DNA of 41,608 nt from Patescibacteria group bacterium (lineage in GTDB: Bacteria; Patescibacteriota; UBA1384; GWA2-35-9; JBASTP01). The notes under the pieces are model-generated. The model searched no databases. It saw only the letters and a list, made by a program, of their open reading frames with translations, and was not told the origin of the DNA. The stretch covers positions 1 to 41,608 of the forward strand of contig JBASTP010000012.1 in NCBI GenBank assembly GCA_049274945.1, given 5' to 3'. A program made the translations under genes and the position numbers. Numbering within the stretch: the first letter of the stretch is position 1; the number at the start of each line of letters is the position of its first letter. Shown in pieces: positions 1,755-37,690 of this stretch.

Positions 1755-1827
1755 GCGCCTATAGCTCAAGGGATAGAGCGAAGGGTTTCTAACCCTTAGG
1801 TTGCAGGTTCGAATCCTGCTAGGCGCA
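1755..1827 (+). tRNA. tRNA-Arg (anticodon TCT)
   Basis: Cloverleaf: acceptor gcgccta/taggcgc, D arm gctcaagggatagagc, anticodon stem aaggg/ccctt with loop tttctaa, T arm gcagg-ttcgaat-cctgc. Confidence 0.8.
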
Positions 1828-5665: not shown

Positions 5666-5732
5666 TGCGCCCGTAGCCCCGACGCAAGGTCGGGATCCCG
5701 ACACCGAAGGTCGTCGGGACTCAGTGGAGCAG
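5666..5732. repeat. CCCGAC/GTCGGG double-hairpin repeat (family member b)
   Basis: gcgcccgtagCCCCGACgcaagGTCGGGAtCCCGACaccgaaggtcGTCGGGActcag. Shares its 5' motif gtagccccgac and 3' motif gtcgggactcag with 30668-30745, and gtagccccgac with 31116-31174. Confidence 0.6.
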
Positions 5733-5740
5733 TTATAGAT

Positions 5741-5813
5741 GCGCCCGTAGCTCAGTGGATAGAGCGGCTGGCTTCGAACCAGCAGGTCGGGGGTCCAATT
5801 CCCTCCGGGCGCG
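5741..5813 (+). tRNA. tRNA-Arg (anticodon TCG)
   Basis: Acceptor gcgcccg/cgggcgc. D arm gctcagtggatagagc. Anticodon stem gctgg/ccagc with loop cttcgaa. Confidence 0.7.
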
Positions 5814-6692: not shown

Positions 6693-6887
6693 GTACAAAA
6701 AGACTCGCCTTGCGCGAGTTCTTTTTGTACTGGTATATGGGATTCGAACGCGAAAGGGGGTCGGGGAAAACAGAAATCTGTGTTTTCCCCGTGCGCGGAA
6801 GCCCACGAAACCGAGGGGTTTCGTGAAGCAAATCTGCCGTAGCGAAGGCCTCCAGTAGCTTAGGCAGATTTGCTGGTGAGATTCCCG
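6693..6887 (+). ncRNA. copy 2 of the tRNA-adjacent structured repeat (leader hairpin 6693-6730 plus core 6740-6886)
   Basis: Hairpin caaaaagactcgcc-ttgc-gcgagttctttttg followed by the core. The element ends gagattcccgccaggccctc, a direct repeat of the tRNA-Lys 3' end gaatcccgccaggccctc at 6675-6692. Confidence 0.55.
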
Positions 6888-6897
6888 CCAGGCCCTC

Positions 6898-17325: not shown

Positions 17326-17351
17326 GATTATTACCTAAAGGTGGATACATA

Positions 17352-17378
17352 GCCGACCAGGGTTGGTCGGTTTTTTTT
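17352..17378 (+). terminator. rho-independent terminator
   Basis: CCGACC-agggt-TGGTCGG followed by TTTTTTTT. Confidence 0.7.
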
Positions 17379-17749: not shown

Positions 17750-18988
17750 ATGAAATATGAAGCAAGTATGAAGAAAAATGTAAAGATTTTTAAGGGTTTG
17801 CCAAACAAACCCGGCGTATATAAGTTCTACGACAGCGCCGGGGAGCTTTTGTATATTGGTAAAGCGATTGATTTAAAAAAGCGCGTAAAGCAGCACTTTG
17901 AGCGGCCCCACAGCAGCGGTATCGAGCAAATGCTTACGCAAGTTGCGAGAGTAGCTCATCAAAAAACCGCGAGTAACATTGAGGCGCTGATCCTTGAATC
18001 CGAGCTTGTGACCGCGCTCAAGCCAAAGTATAACGTCAAGCTGCAGGATGATAAGACGTTCCTAGGAGTTTATATTACGAGCGAGCCATTTCCCCGAATT
18101 TTTCCTGCGCGAATTACTAATAAAAAGTTGCCAAAAGGTACGTTCTATGGTCCGTTTACTTCGGCCAAAACACTGCGCCTGGCGCTCAAAATTATCCGCA
18201 GAATTTTCCCCTACTGCTCTAATCCATCTGGGGGTCGGCCGTGCCTTTATTACCACCTAAAGCAGTGCCCGGGGCCGTGCGCCGGCGCCATTAGCTCCGC
18301 TGATTACCGCAGAATTATCGGTAACCTTAAACTGTTTCTATCCGGCAAGCGGGTTGCCTTGATGAGGCAGCTCAAGCGAGATATTAAACAATTTGCGAAA
18401 TTGCACGAGTACGAGCAAGCGGCACGAGCGCGGGATTCTTTGCAGGCGCTCCAGCACATCCGCGACGTTAATCTGGCCTTCGAAGAGCCAACCTACGAGG
18501 TTGGCAACCTACGAGGTTCAAGGGTTGAGGCATACGACGTGTCGAATGTTTCCGGCAAGTTCGCAGTGGGGGTGATGGTGGTTGGTCTAATCCAAGGTAA
18601 GCGGCTAACCCTGCAGTCAGCCGAGTATCGTACCTTTACTATCAAAACCGTGGCAGGAATCGACGATGTGGCAATGATGCGTGAAACCGTGATGCGCCGC
18701 CTGTGCCACGACGAATGGCCCAGGCCCGAGCTCATTATCGTGGATGGCGGCAAGGGCCATTACCGAGCCGTGGTTCCGCTCATCGCCCAAACGCAGATTA
18801 AACTAATTGCGTGCGCCAAAGGGCCAACGCGCAAAAAAACCGATTTATATTTCGAGGAAACCCAGCTGGGTGATTGGGCCGGTATGCTGCCGGTTTTAAG
18901 GTTATTTTGTGGTAAACTTATAGCAGAGGCCCATCGGTTTGCCATTAACCGTTACCGGGCAGCTCATCGCAGGGCTCTCACCAAATAA
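17750..18988 (+). CDS. uvrC: excinuclease ABC subunit C, short form lacking the C-terminal (HhH)2 domain
   Basis: 412 aa. GIY-YIG (PGVYKFYDSAGELLYIGKA), Cys cluster, UVR domain (EYEQAARARDSLQAL), RNase H-like endonuclease region. Ends before the usual HhH region. Confidence 0.75.
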   Translation: MKYEASMKKNVKIFKGLPNKPGVYKFYDSAGELLYIGKAIDLKKRVKQHFERPHSSGIEQMLTQVARVAHQKTASNIEALILESELVTALKPKYNVKLQDDKTFLGVYITSEPFPRIFPARITNKKLPKGTFYGPFTSAKTLRLALKIIRRIFPYCSNPSGGRPCLYYHLKQCPGPCAGAISSADYRRIIGNLKLFLSGKRVALMRQLKRDIKQFAKLHEYEQAARARDSLQALQHIRDVNLAFEEPTYEVGNLRGSRVEAYDVSNVSGKFAVGVMVVGLIQGKRLTLQSAEYRTFTIKTVAGIDDVAMMRETVMRRLCHDEWPRPELIIVDGGKGHYRAVVPLIAQTQIKLIACAKGPTRKKTDLYFEETQLGDWAGMLPVLRLFCGKLIAEAHRFAINRYRAAHRRALTK

Positions 18989-29955: not shown

Positions 29956-30600
29956 GTGATGGAGATCGAAATTAAACCACAACTCAAAGAACTCCGGCAA
30001 ACGCGGCAAATCTCGCAAGAGGAGCTTGCCGAGCATTTGGGCGTTTCTCGACAAACCATTTTTGCCCTCGAACAGGGGCTAAGTGATCCCTCACTAACTT
30101 TAGCGTGTAAAATAGCCGAGTTTTTCGATCGGCAAGTTGAAGAAGTATTTTTTGGCGAGGCGCATGTGCAACTTGTTCCGTTTCGCGGTATTCGCGATCT
30201 CCACGAGGAGATCGATCGGTTCTTTGATGAAACGGTCCAAACGCTCCCTGCCGCTGCCAATCAAGTGAGTGCCCCGGCGGTCAATCTTCACCAAGACAAT
30301 AAGAACGTCTACGTTGAGTTTGCGGTACCTGGTTTTTCTACTGATGAGATTGATACTGAGATCACGGAGAAATATTTGACCGTCCGCGGCACCAAGCACG
30401 AGGAAAGTGAGGAAAAGGGTAAAATATGGCTGCGCCGAGAATTCGGTGCCACCAGTTTTGAGCGGTCAATCAGCCTGCCGCAAGGAGTCAAGGTGGATAA
30501 GGCGCAAGCGAACCTCAAGGACGGCAAACTCTCAATTATCCTGCCAAAGGCGGAGCCTACGAAGCCGAAAACCACAAAACTCAAGATCAAAGCGAGCTAA
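29956..30600 (+). CDS. XRE-family HTH (N-terminal) fused to Hsp20/alpha-crystallin domain (C-terminal)
   Basis: 214 aa. HTH LKELRQTRQISQEELAEHLGVSRQTIFALEQG. ACD AVNLHQDNKNVYVEFAVPGFSTDEIDTEI..LTVRG...FERSISLPQGVKVDKAQANLKDGKLSIILPK. Confidence 0.7.
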   Translation: MMEIEIKPQLKELRQTRQISQEELAEHLGVSRQTIFALEQGLSDPSLTLACKIAEFFDRQVEEVFFGEAHVQLVPFRGIRDLHEEIDRFFDETVQTLPAAANQVSAPAVNLHQDNKNVYVEFAVPGFSTDEIDTEITEKYLTVRGTKHEESEEKGKIWLRREFGATSFERSISLPQGVKVDKAQANLKDGKLSIILPKAEPTKPKTTKLKIKAS

Positions 30601-30602
30601 CC

Positions 30603-30632
30603 AAATATAGTAGCCAGTAGTCAGTAGCTAGT
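30603..30632. repeat. tandem heptamer repeat (TAGYYAG)x4
   Basis: agtagccagtagtcagtagctagtagtcag. Confidence 0.5.
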
Positions 30633-30667
30633 AGTCAGGGGTCTCTTTTGATATACTTTAGCAGGTT

Positions 30668-30745
30668 CAGGGCGCGCGTAGGGCCGACGCAAGGTCGGCC
30701 TCCCGACTCCCGACGAGAGGTCGGGACGTCGGGACTCAGGGGTAG
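30668..30745. repeat. CCCGAC/GTCGGG double-hairpin repeat (family member c)
   Basis: gcgcgcgtagGGCCGACgcaagGTCGGCCtCCCGACtCCCGACgagagGTCGGGAcGTCGGGActcag. Confidence 0.6.
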
Positions 30746-30786
30746 CCCTGCGCCTAGCAGATTAAGGCGTCGGAAAACATCGATCA

Positions 30787-31053
30787 ATGAAACCAAGTGT
30801 TTATATTTTGTATTCTAGAGCATCAAATAAATACTATATTGGAAGTACGGCAAATATCGAGAACAGGTTGAAACATCATTTGGGAGGTTATACTCCCTCC
30901 ACTCAAAAAATGGCTGGGGTAGCACTAAAATTCAATCAGGAATACGATAGCTTAAAACAAGCAAGAGATATTGAAAAGCGATTGAAAAAATTAAAAAGGC
31001 GAGATTACATTGAAAAAATAATTCGAGACGGTGCGATACATATGCATGTGTAG
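30787..31053 (+). CDS. GIY-YIG nuclease-domain protein (small, stand-alone)
   Basis: 88 aa. VYILYSRASNKYYIGSTANIENRLKHH matches the GIY-YIG core. The 3' end overlaps the tRNA-Val 5' end. Confidence 0.65.
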   Translation: MKPSVYILYSRASNKYYIGSTANIENRLKHHLGGYTPSTQKMAGVALKFNQEYDSLKQARDIEKRLKKLKRRDYIEKIIRDGAIHMHV

Positions 31054-31115
31054 CTCAGGGGTAGAGCGTCTCTTTGACGTAGAGAAGGCCAGTGGTTCGA
31101 TTCCACTCACATGCA
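31044..31115 (+). tRNA. tRNA-Val (anticodon GAC)
   Basis: Acceptor gcatgtg/cacatgc. D arm gctcaggggtagagc. Anticodon stem tctct/agaga with loop ttgacgt. T arm agtgg-ttcgatt-ccact. Confidence 0.75.
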
Positions 31116-31174
31116 CATTCGTGGTAGCCCCGACGTCCGACGAGTCGGGGTGCCGACTGAAACGTCGGCAAGCA
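31116..31174. repeat. CCCGAC/GTCGGG hairpin repeat (family member d), inserted between tRNA-Val and its duplicated 3' fragment
   Basis: gtagCCCCGACgtccgacgagtcgGGGTGCCGACtgaaacGTCGGCAagca. Confidence 0.5.
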
Positions 31175-31222
31175 GTCTCTTTGACGTAGAGAGGGTCAGA
31201 GGTTCGATTCCTCTCGCGCGCA
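31175..31222 (+). other. tRNA-Val 3' fragment (anticodon arm, T arm and acceptor 3' strand, no 5' half), att-like duplication
   Basis: gtctctttgacgtagagagggtcagaggttcgattcctctcgcgcgca parallels 31068-31115 with compensatory T-stem changes. No matching 5' acceptor strand (gcgcgcg) or D arm upstream. Confidence 0.55.
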
Positions 31223-31239
31223 CAAAATCGCCACTAATT

Positions 31240-33282
31240 TTAGATCTTTTGATTGCGCAGTAGTAGCGCGTTGAACGCCACAATCACAGTACTAGCGGAC
31301 ATCAACGCGGCGGCCAATGCCGGCCCAAGTATGATGCCCTTGAATGCCAGCACTCCCGCCGCAAGTGGTATGGCAACCACATTGTACCCAGTGGCCCAAA
31401 ATAGATTTTGCATCATTTTGCGGTAGGTGAGCCGCGACAAGTTAAATATTTTTGGAATATCCCGCGGGTCGTTTTTCACAAGAATAATTCCTGCTGATTC
31501 AATTGCCACATTGGTGCCTGCCCCAATTGCGATACCAAGATCAGCTTGCGTGAGCGCCGGGGCATCATTCACGCCATCACCAACCATGGCAACTTTGTTT
31601 CCGCGCGCTTGCAGATCTCGGACTTTTTTCACCTTTTGGTCCGGGAGCACTCGAGCAAAATACTCATCGAGGCCAAGTTCTTGGGCCACTTGCTTCGCCG
31701 CTTTTTCGCTGTCGCCGGTAATCATTGCCACCCTGATTCCGGCTTGCTTAAGGCGATTGATCGCTGTTTTCGACTCCGGACGCACCGCATCGGCAACTGA
31801 TAGCTTCCCAATTATTACTCCCTCCCGTTCAACGACAATATCGTCTCCACCTTTGGTACCAACAAAGATATGCGTGCTGCCAACAGTACCTTCGGCACCC
31901 CTGCCTGGCACCCGTTTGAAATCAGAGGCTTCTTGTAAGGGCAATGATCGTTTTGTTGCTTCGTCTACGATCGCTTTGGCAATAGGATGTTCGGAATGAG
32001 CGTTGACTGACGCCGCTAAGGCCAGTGCTTCGTCTGAACTCGATTGTGTTACGGTAAATTTCGCCTCAGTAAGTGTGCCGGTTTTGTCAAACAAAACCGT
32101 GTCAATATTACGGGCGGCTTCCAGGGCAACGCGCTGGCGCACCAAAAGTCCGTTACGCGCGGCCATCGTGGTTGAGATCGATGCCACTAACGGCACCGCG
32201 AGTCCCAGCGCGTGAGGGCAGGTAATTACGAGCACCGCCACCAAGCGTTCGGTGGCAACTGCAATGCCGGCGTTGGCCAAAAGCCATGCAATAAAGGTAA
32301 CGGGGCCGATAACAAGTGCGATGATGGTGAGGTAAAATGCCGCGCGATCCGAAATCATTTGGAGCCGAGACTTCGAGGCTTGAGCATCGGCAACCAACCG
32401 CATTACCCCGGCGAGGAAGGTTTCCTCGCCGATTTTTTCAATGGTCACTTTTAAGCTCCCGTCGCCGTTGATCGAGCCGGCAATCACCGTTGCGCCAATA
32501 GTTTTTTCAACTGGTCGTGATTCACCGGTAATAATCGACTCATTGAGATCAGACCGGCCCTCGATAATTTTTCCATCGGCCGGTACTTTTGCTCCGGGCT
32601 TGACCAATACGACATCGCCGATTTTGAGCTGGCTCAAGGGAATAATTTCTGTTGTGTTGCCCCGAATAACCTCTGCCGTATCGGGCAAAAGTTTTGCTAG
32701 TTCCTTGAGCGCACCTTGGGCGCTTTGGACTGATCGCATCTCGATCCAATGGCCTAGGAGCATCACGGTAATTAGCGAGGAAAGCTCAAAGAGCAAATCG
32801 TGGCCGGTTCCGGATAGGATCGAAAAGAAGCTGTAGAGATAGGCTGCCGTAATGGCAATGGCAATAAGCGTCATCATGCCCGGCAGCCGTGCTTTTAACT
32901 CGCGGTACGCGCTCGTGAGAAAAATCAACCCGCAATAAAAAAAGACTATGCTTCCCAGGCCAAGCAGCAGATATTGCACTCCGGTAAACCGCGGCGCCTG
33001 CAGTTTGAAAATTGTCACGGCTATTTCCGAATAGAAAAAGATCGGGATAGTGAGTGCCAGTGCAACCCAAAACTTTGTCAGAAACGAAGAGGTTTTGTGG
33101 CCGGCATGCTTGTCCGCCGTAGCCTTGGGGGAGGCGGATTTATCGTGTCCCGCGTGCTCAGCAGCCTTTTCTGTTTTTTTCTCTATGGGTACAAGATTCA
33201 TGCCGCACTCCGGGCACATCCCCGGTTTGTCTTGAACGATTTCCGGATGCATGGGGCAGGTATAGCTAGTGTCGTGATTCAT
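31240..33282 (-). CDS. heavy-metal (copper) translocating P1B-type ATPase, CopB-like, with His-rich N-terminus
   Basis: ORF-track frame 31240..33318, whose first codon is TTG. First ATG (33282) gives MNHDTSYTCPMHPEIVQDKPGMCPECGM (metal-binding) then His-rich HAGHDKSA..HAGH. CPH motif in TM6 (ITCPHALGLAVP), DKTGTLT, GDGVNDAPAL. Confidence 0.8.
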   Translation of the reverse strand: MNHDTSYTCPMHPEIVQDKPGMCPECGMNLVPIEKKTEKAAEHAGHDKSASPKATADKHAGHKTSSFLTKFWVALALTIPIFFYSEIAVTIFKLQAPRFTGVQYLLLGLGSIVFFYCGLIFLTSAYRELKARLPGMMTLIAIAITAAYLYSFFSILSGTGHDLLFELSSLITVMLLGHWIEMRSVQSAQGALKELAKLLPDTAEVIRGNTTEIIPLSQLKIGDVVLVKPGAKVPADGKIIEGRSDLNESIITGESRPVEKTIGATVIAGSINGDGSLKVTIEKIGEETFLAGVMRLVADAQASKSRLQMISDRAAFYLTIIALVIGPVTFIAWLLANAGIAVATERLVAVLVITCPHALGLAVPLVASISTTMAARNGLLVRQRVALEAARNIDTVLFDKTGTLTEAKFTVTQSSSDEALALAASVNAHSEHPIAKAIVDEATKRSLPLQEASDFKRVPGRGAEGTVGSTHIFVGTKGGDDIVVEREGVIIGKLSVADAVRPESKTAINRLKQAGIRVAMITGDSEKAAKQVAQELGLDEYFARVLPDQKVKKVRDLQARGNKVAMVGDGVNDAPALTQADLGIAIGAGTNVAIESAGIILVKNDPRDIPKIFNLSRLTYRKMMQNLFWATGYNVVAIPLAAGVLAFKGIILGPALAAALMSASTVIVAFNALLLRNQKI

Positions 33283-37642: not shown

Positions 37643-37660
37643 CTTTATTAGCTCATGCAA

Positions 37661-37690
37661 CCGACGGAAAATTCATTCGTCGGTTTTTTT
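37661..37690 (+). terminator. rho-independent terminator
   Basis: CCGACG-gaaaattcatt-CGTCGG followed by TTTTTTT. Confidence 0.7.

Follow-up and report, generated by a model that had tools for sequence, protein, structure and literature searches.

The tRNA-Val(GAC) locus

The DNA analyzed here is a stretch of 41,608 nucleotides (nt), referred to as the window (contig JBASTP010000012.1, Patescibacteria group bacterium, assembly GCA_049274945.1), in which a small open reading frame (ORF) for a GIY-YIG nuclease and a complete tRNA-Val(GAC) lie between pieces of another tRNA-Val gene. Coordinates are given in window numbering, and all of the loci compared come from metagenome assemblies. ARAGORN and the Rfam tRNA model (69.1 bits) agree on a single complete tRNA-Val(GAC) at 31044–31115/6, and neither predicts a second tRNA within 31116–31222. 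A repeat search revealed a 50-nt direct repeat (31068–31117 and 31175–31224, 86% identity; E ~1e-9 by BLAST within the window), the second copy of which covers the anticodon arm, variable loop, T arm, acceptor 3' strand and discriminator. The 59 nt separating the two copies form two hairpins with CCGAC/GTCGG stem cores (−26.8 kcal/mol, z = −2.6). The intact tRNA-Val, the hairpins, the partial 3' copy with its altered T stem and the lack of a complete second tRNA had all been proposed in an earlier, sequence-only reading of this DNA, and on these points ARAGORN, Rfam, the repeat search and BLAST bear it out.

The partial copy differs from the intact tRNA-Val in the T stem (AGAGG/CCTCT versus AGTGG/CCACT) and in the acceptor 3' strand (CGCGCGC versus CACATGC), and is therefore derived from a different tRNA-Val gene. 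As AGCA at 31171–31174 corresponds to positions 23–26 of that old gene, the 3' piece spans 31171–31222 (52 nt, not 48). The sequence-only reading had described the copy as lacking a 5' half; its 5' part was found upstream of the nuclease gene, in two segments (30672–30681 and 30735–30745). The first of these is identical to positions 1–10 of the intact gene in two related contigs, L089 and L097, and contains GCGCGCG, which is exactly complementary to CGCGCGC, the orphaned strand of the acceptor stem at 31215–31221. The second holds the remaining 5' strand of the D stem, the D loop and the first 3' base of the D stem. When 30672–30681, 30735–30745 and 31171–31222 are joined, ARAGORN recognizes a tRNA-Val(GAC), and the joined pieces are identical to the tRNA-Val of L089 at 72 of 72 positions, apart from the extra G at 31175; the resident gene has lost zero nucleotides and gained one G, at the 26/27 junction. 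A window search for the 5' half as one 25-mer (up to 3 mismatches) matched only the intact tRNA, because that half is interrupted by hairpins, and it was recognized only by means of a third related contig, L001.

The island between the two copies had been read as a palindromic repeat alone. Instead, the insert at G22^A23 amounts to 425 nt, comprising a leader, the GIY-YIG ORF, the complete tRNA-Val(GAC), CATTCGTGGTAGC and the right hairpin pair, in that order, after which the resident gene continues with positions 23–76; a further hairpin pair of 53 nt lies 5' of it, and this left pair is missing from the empty sites in L089 and L097. The end of the ORF overlaps the inner tRNA in such a way that its final codons and stop TAG are tRNA positions 1–10, the stop being T8-A9-G10. 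Based on these comparisons, the partial tRNA-Val at 31171–31222 can be assigned as the 3' two-thirds of the lineage's original tRNA-Val(GAC), and that resident gene has been split in three by two precise insertions, the 53-nt hairpin pair at G10^C11 and the 425-nt cassette at G22^A23 (Table 1). The inner tRNA-Val, which departs from the disrupted outer gene at position 26, in the variable loop and in the acceptor and T stems but nowhere else, is accordingly foreign cargo that now replaces the resident gene. The intact tRNA, earlier taken for the integration target, is the incoming copy, with the 5' part of the target lying upstream of the nuclease gene.

Table 1. Features of the tRNA-Val(GAC) locus and of an ORF-less hairpin module in the same window
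Feature	Position	Strand	Basis or content
HTH(XRE)-Hsp20 fusion gene	29956..30600	+	ORF list; conserved upstream neighbour, used as synteny anchor
Resident tRNA-Val(GAC) piece 1, GCGCGCGTAG	30672..30681	+	Acceptor 5' strand GCGCGCG followed by T8 A9 G10
Left hairpin pair, 53 nt, between G10 and C11	30682..30734	+	Fold −42.9 kcal/mol, z = −4.1
Left hairpin 1 (HP1), GGCCGAC..GTCGGCC	30682–30700	+	
Left hairpin 2 (HP2), TCCCGAC..GTCGGGA, with a nested hairpin inside the loop	30701–30734	+	
Resident tRNA-Val piece 2, CTCAGGGGTAG, positions 11–22	30735..30745	+	Agrees with L089 and L097 at positions 11–21
Cassette leader, 41 nt	30746..30786	+	Without counterpart in the empty sites; conserved in L001
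GIY-YIG nuclease ORF, 88 amino acids	30787..31053	+	Pfam PF01541, 1.2e-12
Inner complete tRNA-Val(GAC), acceptor GCATGTG/CACATGC, T stem AGTGG/CCACT	31044..31115	+	ARAGORN, Rfam
Spacer CATTCGTGGTAGC, then right hairpin pair	31116..31170	+	Sequence, repeat search, fold
Right HP1, CCCCGAC..GTCGGGG	31128–31150	+	
Right HP2, TGCCGAC TGAAAC GTCGGCA	31151–31170	+	
Resident tRNA-Val piece 3: AGCA (23–26), extra G at 31175, rest through discriminator	31171..31222	+	Reassembly
ORF-less module: first 11 nt of tRNA-Arg(TCG) GCGCCCGTAGC, hairpin pair (5678–5719), CTCAGTGGA	5667..5728	+	Sequence

The ORF product matches Pfam PF01541 with 48.4 bits against a cutoff of 22.6, and also has a weak match to T5orf172. 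In a profile search against the PDB, the solved structures closest to it are those of BH0048 and EF2693, two UPF0213 proteins with a single domain; SLX1, the catalytic domain of I-TevI, and UvrC come next. The catalytic domain covers residues 3–72 of the 88. Among 33 diverse aligned members, Y6, Y17, G19, R27 and E63 are invariant and H31 is nearly so, and this conservation of putative catalytic residues argues for an active nuclease under selection. The number of detectable homologues is 156, and those that are named belong to Patescibacteria. No true relatives of the ORF were found in a viral contig collection, where the matches were partial and showed 29–48% identity; thus, a phage vector is unsupported. 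A second weak GIY-YIG match in the window (17807–17899) belongs to a UvrC-like ORF of 412 amino acids and is unrelated.

Filled and empty sites in related contigs

The contig that disclosed the split, L001, is 557 bp long, comes from another sample and encodes an ORF product 98% identical to that of the window. Upstream of its ORF it carries GCGCGCGTAGC, two hairpins and CTCAGGGGTAG; its left hairpin pair (130–172 of that contig) is 43 nt long, with stem pairs unlike those of the 53-nt pair in the window. L089 was obtained by a metagenome scan with the predicted uninterrupted gene, and shows the same upstream Hsp20 gene, a similar leader and then an intact tRNA-Val. A second metagenome match to the tRNA pattern (L090) lies in an unrelated context. 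Three more contigs were located through homologues of the window HTH-Hsp20 protein. L097 (Hsp20 identity 90%) has an uninterrupted tRNA-Val with the acceptor GCGCGCG directly 3' of the Hsp20 gene and a 3' flank resembling the window sequence past 31222, L098 (79%) is arranged as L089, and L099 (54%) is uninterrupted up to the contig end at the anticodon loop. The upstream leader is common to L089, L097 and L098. Within the reach of these four contigs, of which only L089 and L097 extend past the tRNA, neither hairpins nor a GIY-YIG ORF were found.

The order of an Hsp20 gene followed by tRNA-Val with the acceptor GCGCGCG is evidently the ancestral one, and among these contigs the inserts are confined to the lineage of the window and L001. 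With filled sites in the window and L001, and empty sites in L089, L097, L098 and L099, all behind the same Hsp20 gene, the locus is polymorphic for the presence of the cassette, which indicates that the cassette is mobile. The sequence-only reading had also considered an excision that left the repeat behind; no sign of it was found, and the relatives carry the ancestral site uninterrupted. Compared by eye with L097, about 20% of the positions differ in the intergenic leader and only 1 of 72 in the tRNA gene pieces. Thus, the break is much younger than the divergence of the window from L097, although older than the split between the window and L001. At this locus, the acceptor GCATGTG of the inner tRNA is absent from all four relatives, and its T stem is unlike that in L089 and L097; the inner tRNA-Val arrived with the insert.

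The HTH(XRE)-Hsp20 gene itself encodes an alpha-crystallin fusion whose architecture is the same in about 20 homologues from Patescibacteria, and an Hsp20 gene adjoins the cassette in L002 and L003 as well. An exact-sequence look-up of the GIY-YIG and Hsp20 proteins of the window gave no match, probably due to start-codon differences.

tRNA-linked GIY-YIG genes and hairpins across Patescibacteria

In total, 82 loci were surveyed: 80 from a scan with one genome per species (80 different genomes), the window, and L003. Of the 82 loci, 73 have a tRNA on the same strand no more than 200 nt downstream of the ORF, and in 65 it lies between −25 and +35 nt; 19 anticodons are represented. Four apparent exceptions (L009, L025, L048 and L068) have the ORF directly upstream of a tRNA-Asn that is interrupted after CTGT in the anticodon loop and was missed by ARAGORN, the site being the 35/36 position of group I introns (PMC13011429). 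The stop codon of the ORF is the tRNA's own T8-A9-G10 in 25 loci. The first 11 nt of the tRNA (with at most 1 mismatch) are repeated within 180 nt upstream of the ORF in 39 of the 73 loci, against a background of 0.0008 per 180 nt. A match to the last 24 nt of the tRNA (at most 6 mismatches) follows the intact gene in 14 loci; some of these downstream matches represent a separate att-like element.

The nesting seen in the window recurs in L003 (tRNA-Phe) and L017 (tRNA-Ile), where the outer acceptor strands pair across the ORF and an inner tRNA that is different from the outer one but of the same isotype. Judged by this comparison, the cassette belongs to a family widespread in Patescibacteria, with the ORF located directly upstream of a tRNA and between partial or complete copies of it, and with pairs of hairpins in the D loop of whichever copy is disabled. 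In a neighbour-joining tree, which is noisy for such a short protein, the ORFs cluster partly by isotype, yet isotypes are mixed: the Val ORF of the window groups as sister with a Phe ORF, and ORFs of Phe and Lys, of Ile and Phe, and of Ile and Lys also occur side by side. This mixing points to target switches.

The density of CCGAC..GTCGG hairpins is 7.7/kb in the 250 nt upstream of the ORFs, an enrichment of more than 100-fold, 2.7/kb in the 250 nt downstream, and about 0.05/kb elsewhere in the loci; upstream hairpins are present in 71 of the 82 loci. The suggestion that CCCGAC-type elements are tied to tRNA genes is upheld as a linkage, but they are not genome-wide repeats, being concentrated within 250 nt of GIY-YIG ORFs. 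Within the 5' fragments, the hairpin insertion points fall into two classes, after tRNA positions 10–12 (26 loci) and after 15–16 (19 loci). In decayed outer copies, hairpins are also found in the anticodon, variable and T loops, and one hairpin may be nested in the loop of another. Between the window and L001, the flanks of which are 96–98% identical, HP1 underwent a compensatory swap of its outer pairs, CC..GG becoming GG..CC, and the loop of HP2 gained a nested hairpin, so that the hairpins turn over much faster than their flanks. It looks as if they were rewritten from other copies. The right HP2 of the window and HP2 of L003, a distant locus, are near-identical in stem and TGAAAC loop. 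As a gauge of an RNA-type signature, which would confine them to the sense strand, GNRA-like loops were counted 32 times in sense and 23 times in antisense orientation.

A hairpin census of the 41.6-kb window gave four tRNA-linked sites, one site upstream of an ORF (1007–1026) and two unrelated sites (17351–17372 and 37659–37685). The isolated hairpin at 1007–1026 reads TCCCGACTTCACGTCGGGA and lies just upstream of the ORF start. Further partial tRNA copies are the 5' copies upstream of the ORF in 39 of 73 loci and, in the window, the one in the module at 5667–5728, 12 nt past which an intact tRNA-Arg(TCG) begins (5741–5813). The region 5667–5813 is an ORF-less version, or a remnant, of the cassette's left module. 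Similar ORF-less cases are L067 at tRNA-Arg(CCT) and L028 at tRNA-Val.

Proposed mechanism, rival explanations and known systems

Taken as a whole, the locus is probably best explained by a split resident tRNA-Val and a mobile, homing-endonuclease-like cassette that occupies the D arms of tRNA genes and brings a spare tRNA. The descriptive part of this explanation, the split gene and its cargo, is very likely correct, and the specific proposal of nuclease-driven homing into D arms comes close to an even call, on the lower side of it. According to this proposal, the nuclease would break the tRNA gene in its D arm, recognizing either the conserved D-arm sequence or a hairpin/cloverleaf structure of the DNA. 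The D arm is the most conserved stretch common to tRNA genes, and it is also able to form DNA hairpins. Repair would then copy the cassette into the break, with the flanking tRNA segments serving as homology. Where the acceptors of donor and recipient match, repair may end within the tRNA, so that a duplicated 5' fragment is all that remains, as is commonly seen; where they are unlike, as in the window, the whole donor tRNA would be taken in and the resident 3' part stranded downstream. The host would survive through the whole tRNA that is duplicated or carried along and, with its resident gene destroyed, would depend on the linked copy, making loss of the cassette costly. Hairpins would gather in the disabled copy only, since insertions in the working copy would be lethal.

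On a more tentative level, and with the balance tilting against it, the cassettes may represent a previously unrecognized class of selfish elements specific to tRNA genes, in which a minimal single-domain GIY-YIG nuclease recognizes the tRNA gene itself. The nuclease would plausibly recognize either the D-arm sequence, which is universally conserved, or DNA extruded as a hairpin or cloverleaf, with breaks at the fixed D-arm positions 10/11, 15/16 or about 22–26, and the cassette would be copied in with its hairpin modules and a spare or duplicated tRNA. The destruction of the original gene would then amount to an addiction strategy, which, if true, would account for the persistence of the cassettes in genomes of very small size. 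Through collaborative homing, group I introns of tRNA-Asn that lack an ORF might be mobilized by this nuclease as well.

Several results weigh against nuclease-driven D-arm homing, or against parts of the reconstruction. The right half of the window locus (31116–31222) comes from a single assembly and contig; exact repeats there do not exceed 20 nt, and the left half is independently confirmed by L001. The D arm of the inner tRNA (GTAGCTCAGGGGTAGAGC) is identical to that of the target, so that a nuclease specific for the D arm alone would be expected to attack the locus that encodes it, even though the outer gene is disrupted. Domain searches of the 88-residue protein returned neither a DNA-recognition module nor any other significant domain. 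A target-site duplication of fixed length is unsupported, as the 3' ends of the 5' fragments are spread over tRNA positions 14–29; in the ORF-less L067, the duplication also takes in the 24 nt that precede the tRNA. The 5' fragment and the inner tRNA have the same acceptor 7-mer in 34 loci, and the usual route may thus be target duplication rather than cargo. Finally, the apparent copy number, about one in each genome, is low given that some 40 tRNA genes could serve as targets. This number is probably an underestimate: of the 80 contigs, about 20 stop no more than ~600 nt past the ORF, and the fragmentation of metagenome-assembled genomes may hide copies; the pattern suggests that duplicated tRNA segments and hairpins break short-read assemblies at cassette loci.

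The strongest competitor is a hairpin-centred element comparable to REP/RAYT or IS200/IS605, in which the putative nuclease would act on folded CCGAC/GTCGG hairpins and not on tRNA sequence; the hairpin modules would be the mobile units, with a preference for the loops of tRNA-gene or hairpin DNA, and the ORF would be carried between them. Hairpins on both sides of the cassette in the window, L017, L072 and L003 speak for it, as do the nesting in hairpin loops, the dead copies with hairpins in D, anticodon, variable and T loops, the ORF-less modules at other tRNAs, and the double compensatory swap and nested insertion between the close strains represented by the window and L001. Moreover, SLX1, the closest characterized relative of the nuclease, is structure-specific. 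On the other hand, the hairpins are not dispersed but virtually confined to the ORF and tRNA fragments, many loci have upstream hairpins only, and the loop sequences show no clear strand bias, so that this explanation is regarded as unlikely, though it retains some weight. Much less credible is a non-selfish resident GIY-YIG gene that is co-transcribed with the tRNA, the 5' fragment and hairpins forming a cis-acting leader (a decoy or processing signal). It would agree with the single copy per genome, the strong conservation of the protein, the precise junction of the ORF with tRNA position +1 in 25 loci, and the co-variation of the 5' fragment with its own inner tRNA in the sister pairs L069/L085 and L043/L046. 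It conflicts with the coexistence of empty and filled sites at the same locus, the 19 anticodons and mixed isotypes in the ORF tree, the dead halves of outer tRNAs on the downstream side at some of the 14 loci that have a 3' match, and the destruction of the resident tRNA-Val in the window.

Two other explanations concern the tRNA-Val locus in particular. The three pieces of the outer gene, still 72/72 identical to a working gene and with perfectly complementary acceptor strands, could be imagined as a functional interrupted gene from whose RNA the inserts are removed, and Patescibacteria are indeed rich in introns (PMC13011429) and have GIY-YIG ORFs in non-intron inserts of their rRNA genes (PMC11270868). 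However, no Rfam intron, ribozyme or riboswitch was detected over 30400–31500 at gathering score or at E ≤ 10, a G has been added at the 26/27 junction, and the insertion points, 10/11 and 22/23, are within the D stem and not in a loop. In addition, a complete tRNA with the same anticodon lies within the insert, and the outer copies at other loci are visibly decayed or without a 3' half. Bacteria are not known to have splicing machinery for such sites, and the interrupted-gene explanation is considered highly improbable. At the very bottom of the scale stands the scar of a tyrosine-integrase island at the 3' end of tRNA-Val, later excised or decayed to an att-like duplicate and a palindrome. 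The arrangement at 31044–31222, an intact tRNA with a partial 3' copy behind it, is the one classically left by att sites, and true att-like 3' duplicates of 15–22 nt do exist at the tRNA-Lys of the window, in L054 and in L085. Yet the copy is only 86% identical, differs in acceptor and T stem, begins at position 23 and has its own 5' part upstream of the ORF; no integrase ORF lies nearby, the GIY-YIG ORF being the only family-supported ORF between the tRNA pieces, and the empty sites indicate that the outer gene is the original one. The earlier view of the partial copy as an insertion relic in a tRNA gene thus survives, but without an integrase or an identical att repeat.

Among the known systems, the closest functional analogues of the cassette are the free-standing GIY-YIG endonucleases of phage T4, the Seg family, above all SegB in a tRNA cluster (PMC2330249). 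Their genes likewise lie between or beside tRNA genes and are polymorphic in presence, and they are presumed, or have been shown, to spread by cutting alleles that lack the ORF, whereupon they are copied across together with flanking markers (PMC2330249). In contrast to the bare 88-residue catalytic domain encoded on a cellular chromosome here, Seg proteins have DNA-binding domains and belong to a phage; SegB leaves its target unsplit, without tRNA fragments or hairpin modules, whereas the window cassette, whose cleavage activity is presumed, splits tRNA-Val. In fractured genes with split inteins (PMC2677866), the gene is also physically split, with a free-standing homing endonuclease gene in the gap, although the halves are there rejoined as protein by trans-splicing; in the window they are abandoned, and a spare complete tRNA inside the insert takes over their function. 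Integrative elements that target tRNA genes by means of a tyrosine integrase and attL/attR resemble the cassette in having an insert between a complete and a partial tRNA and in keeping tRNA function. The window differs from them in having no integrase, a break in the D arm and not in the anticodon or T loop, non-identical repeats and a complete tRNA inside the insert, and in the cassette family the duplicated part is usually the 5' end. REP/RAYT systems (REPtrons) and IS200/IS605 share short hairpins with conserved stems around a single-copy nuclease gene and co-varying stem pairs, but the nuclease here is GIY-YIG and not HUH/Y1, and the hairpins are tied to tRNA fragments rather than dispersed.

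Patescibacteria (candidate phyla radiation, CPR) harbor group I introns at position 35/36 of tRNA-Asn and tRNA-Asp, most of them without their own endonuclease (PMC13011429), and GIY-YIG proteins are encoded in non-intron inserts of CPR rRNA genes (PMC11270868). The cassette shares with both the phylum and insertion into genes for structured RNAs, and is set apart by the lack of a ribozyme match, by D-arm sites and by rescue through a spare gene instead of splicing. Neither of these two reports mentions tRNA-linked GIY-YIG genes, and no description of such genes in Patescibacteria was found in the searchable full-text literature. In none of the systems named do a nuclease consisting of a bare catalytic domain, breakage in the D arm, hairpin modules and a spare tRNA occur together; the best reading places the cassette with the homing-endonuclease-type selfish cassettes. 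If this is correct, a widespread nuclease cassette parasitizes tRNA genes in at least 80 species-level genomes of Patescibacteria and at 19 anticodons. This would explain stray tRNA halves, hairpin clusters and contig breaks beside tRNAs in CPR assemblies, and tRNA fragments there should not be taken for integrase att sites. The target of the 88-residue nuclease may then be among the most conserved sequences or structures in biology, and the cassette would offer a testable case of a mobile element securing itself through the replacement of an essential gene. A link to the spread of tRNA introns without homing endonucleases in Patescibacteria is possible, as a free-standing nuclease might help them.

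Separate att-like elements occur at other tRNAs. Two elements of ~141–145 nt in the window (GGATTCGAACGCG...GTGAG; 1842–1999 and 6740–6897), 99% identical to each other and without an Rfam match, follow tRNA-Arg(TCT) and tRNA-Lys(CTT), respectively. The one behind tRNA-Lys ends in ATTCCCGCCAGGCCCTC (6881–6897), a near-exact duplicate of the last 17 nt of that tRNA, and the one behind tRNA-Arg(TCT) ends in the 3' end of another tRNA, ATTCCCTGCCGGGCTCA; the att-like pattern encloses a tiny "island". Over 12 nt, TGCGCCTAGCAG in the cassette leader (30749–30760) exactly matches the complementary strand at the tRNA-Arg(TCT) 3' end in the window (1816–1827), which may be due to chance (E = 0.16) or may be a trace of earlier residence there. 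In L054, L085, L063, L065, L049 and L081, the GIY-YIG ORF and its adjoining tRNA are followed by a comparable insert, 100–200 nt downstream of that tRNA. These inserts are 100–190 nt long, look structured and end in a near-exact copy of the last 15–22 nt of the preceding tRNA, usually preceded by a CGTGAC(C/T)GA motif. They are of at least two sequence types, one of which (L049 and L081) resembles the elements in the window.

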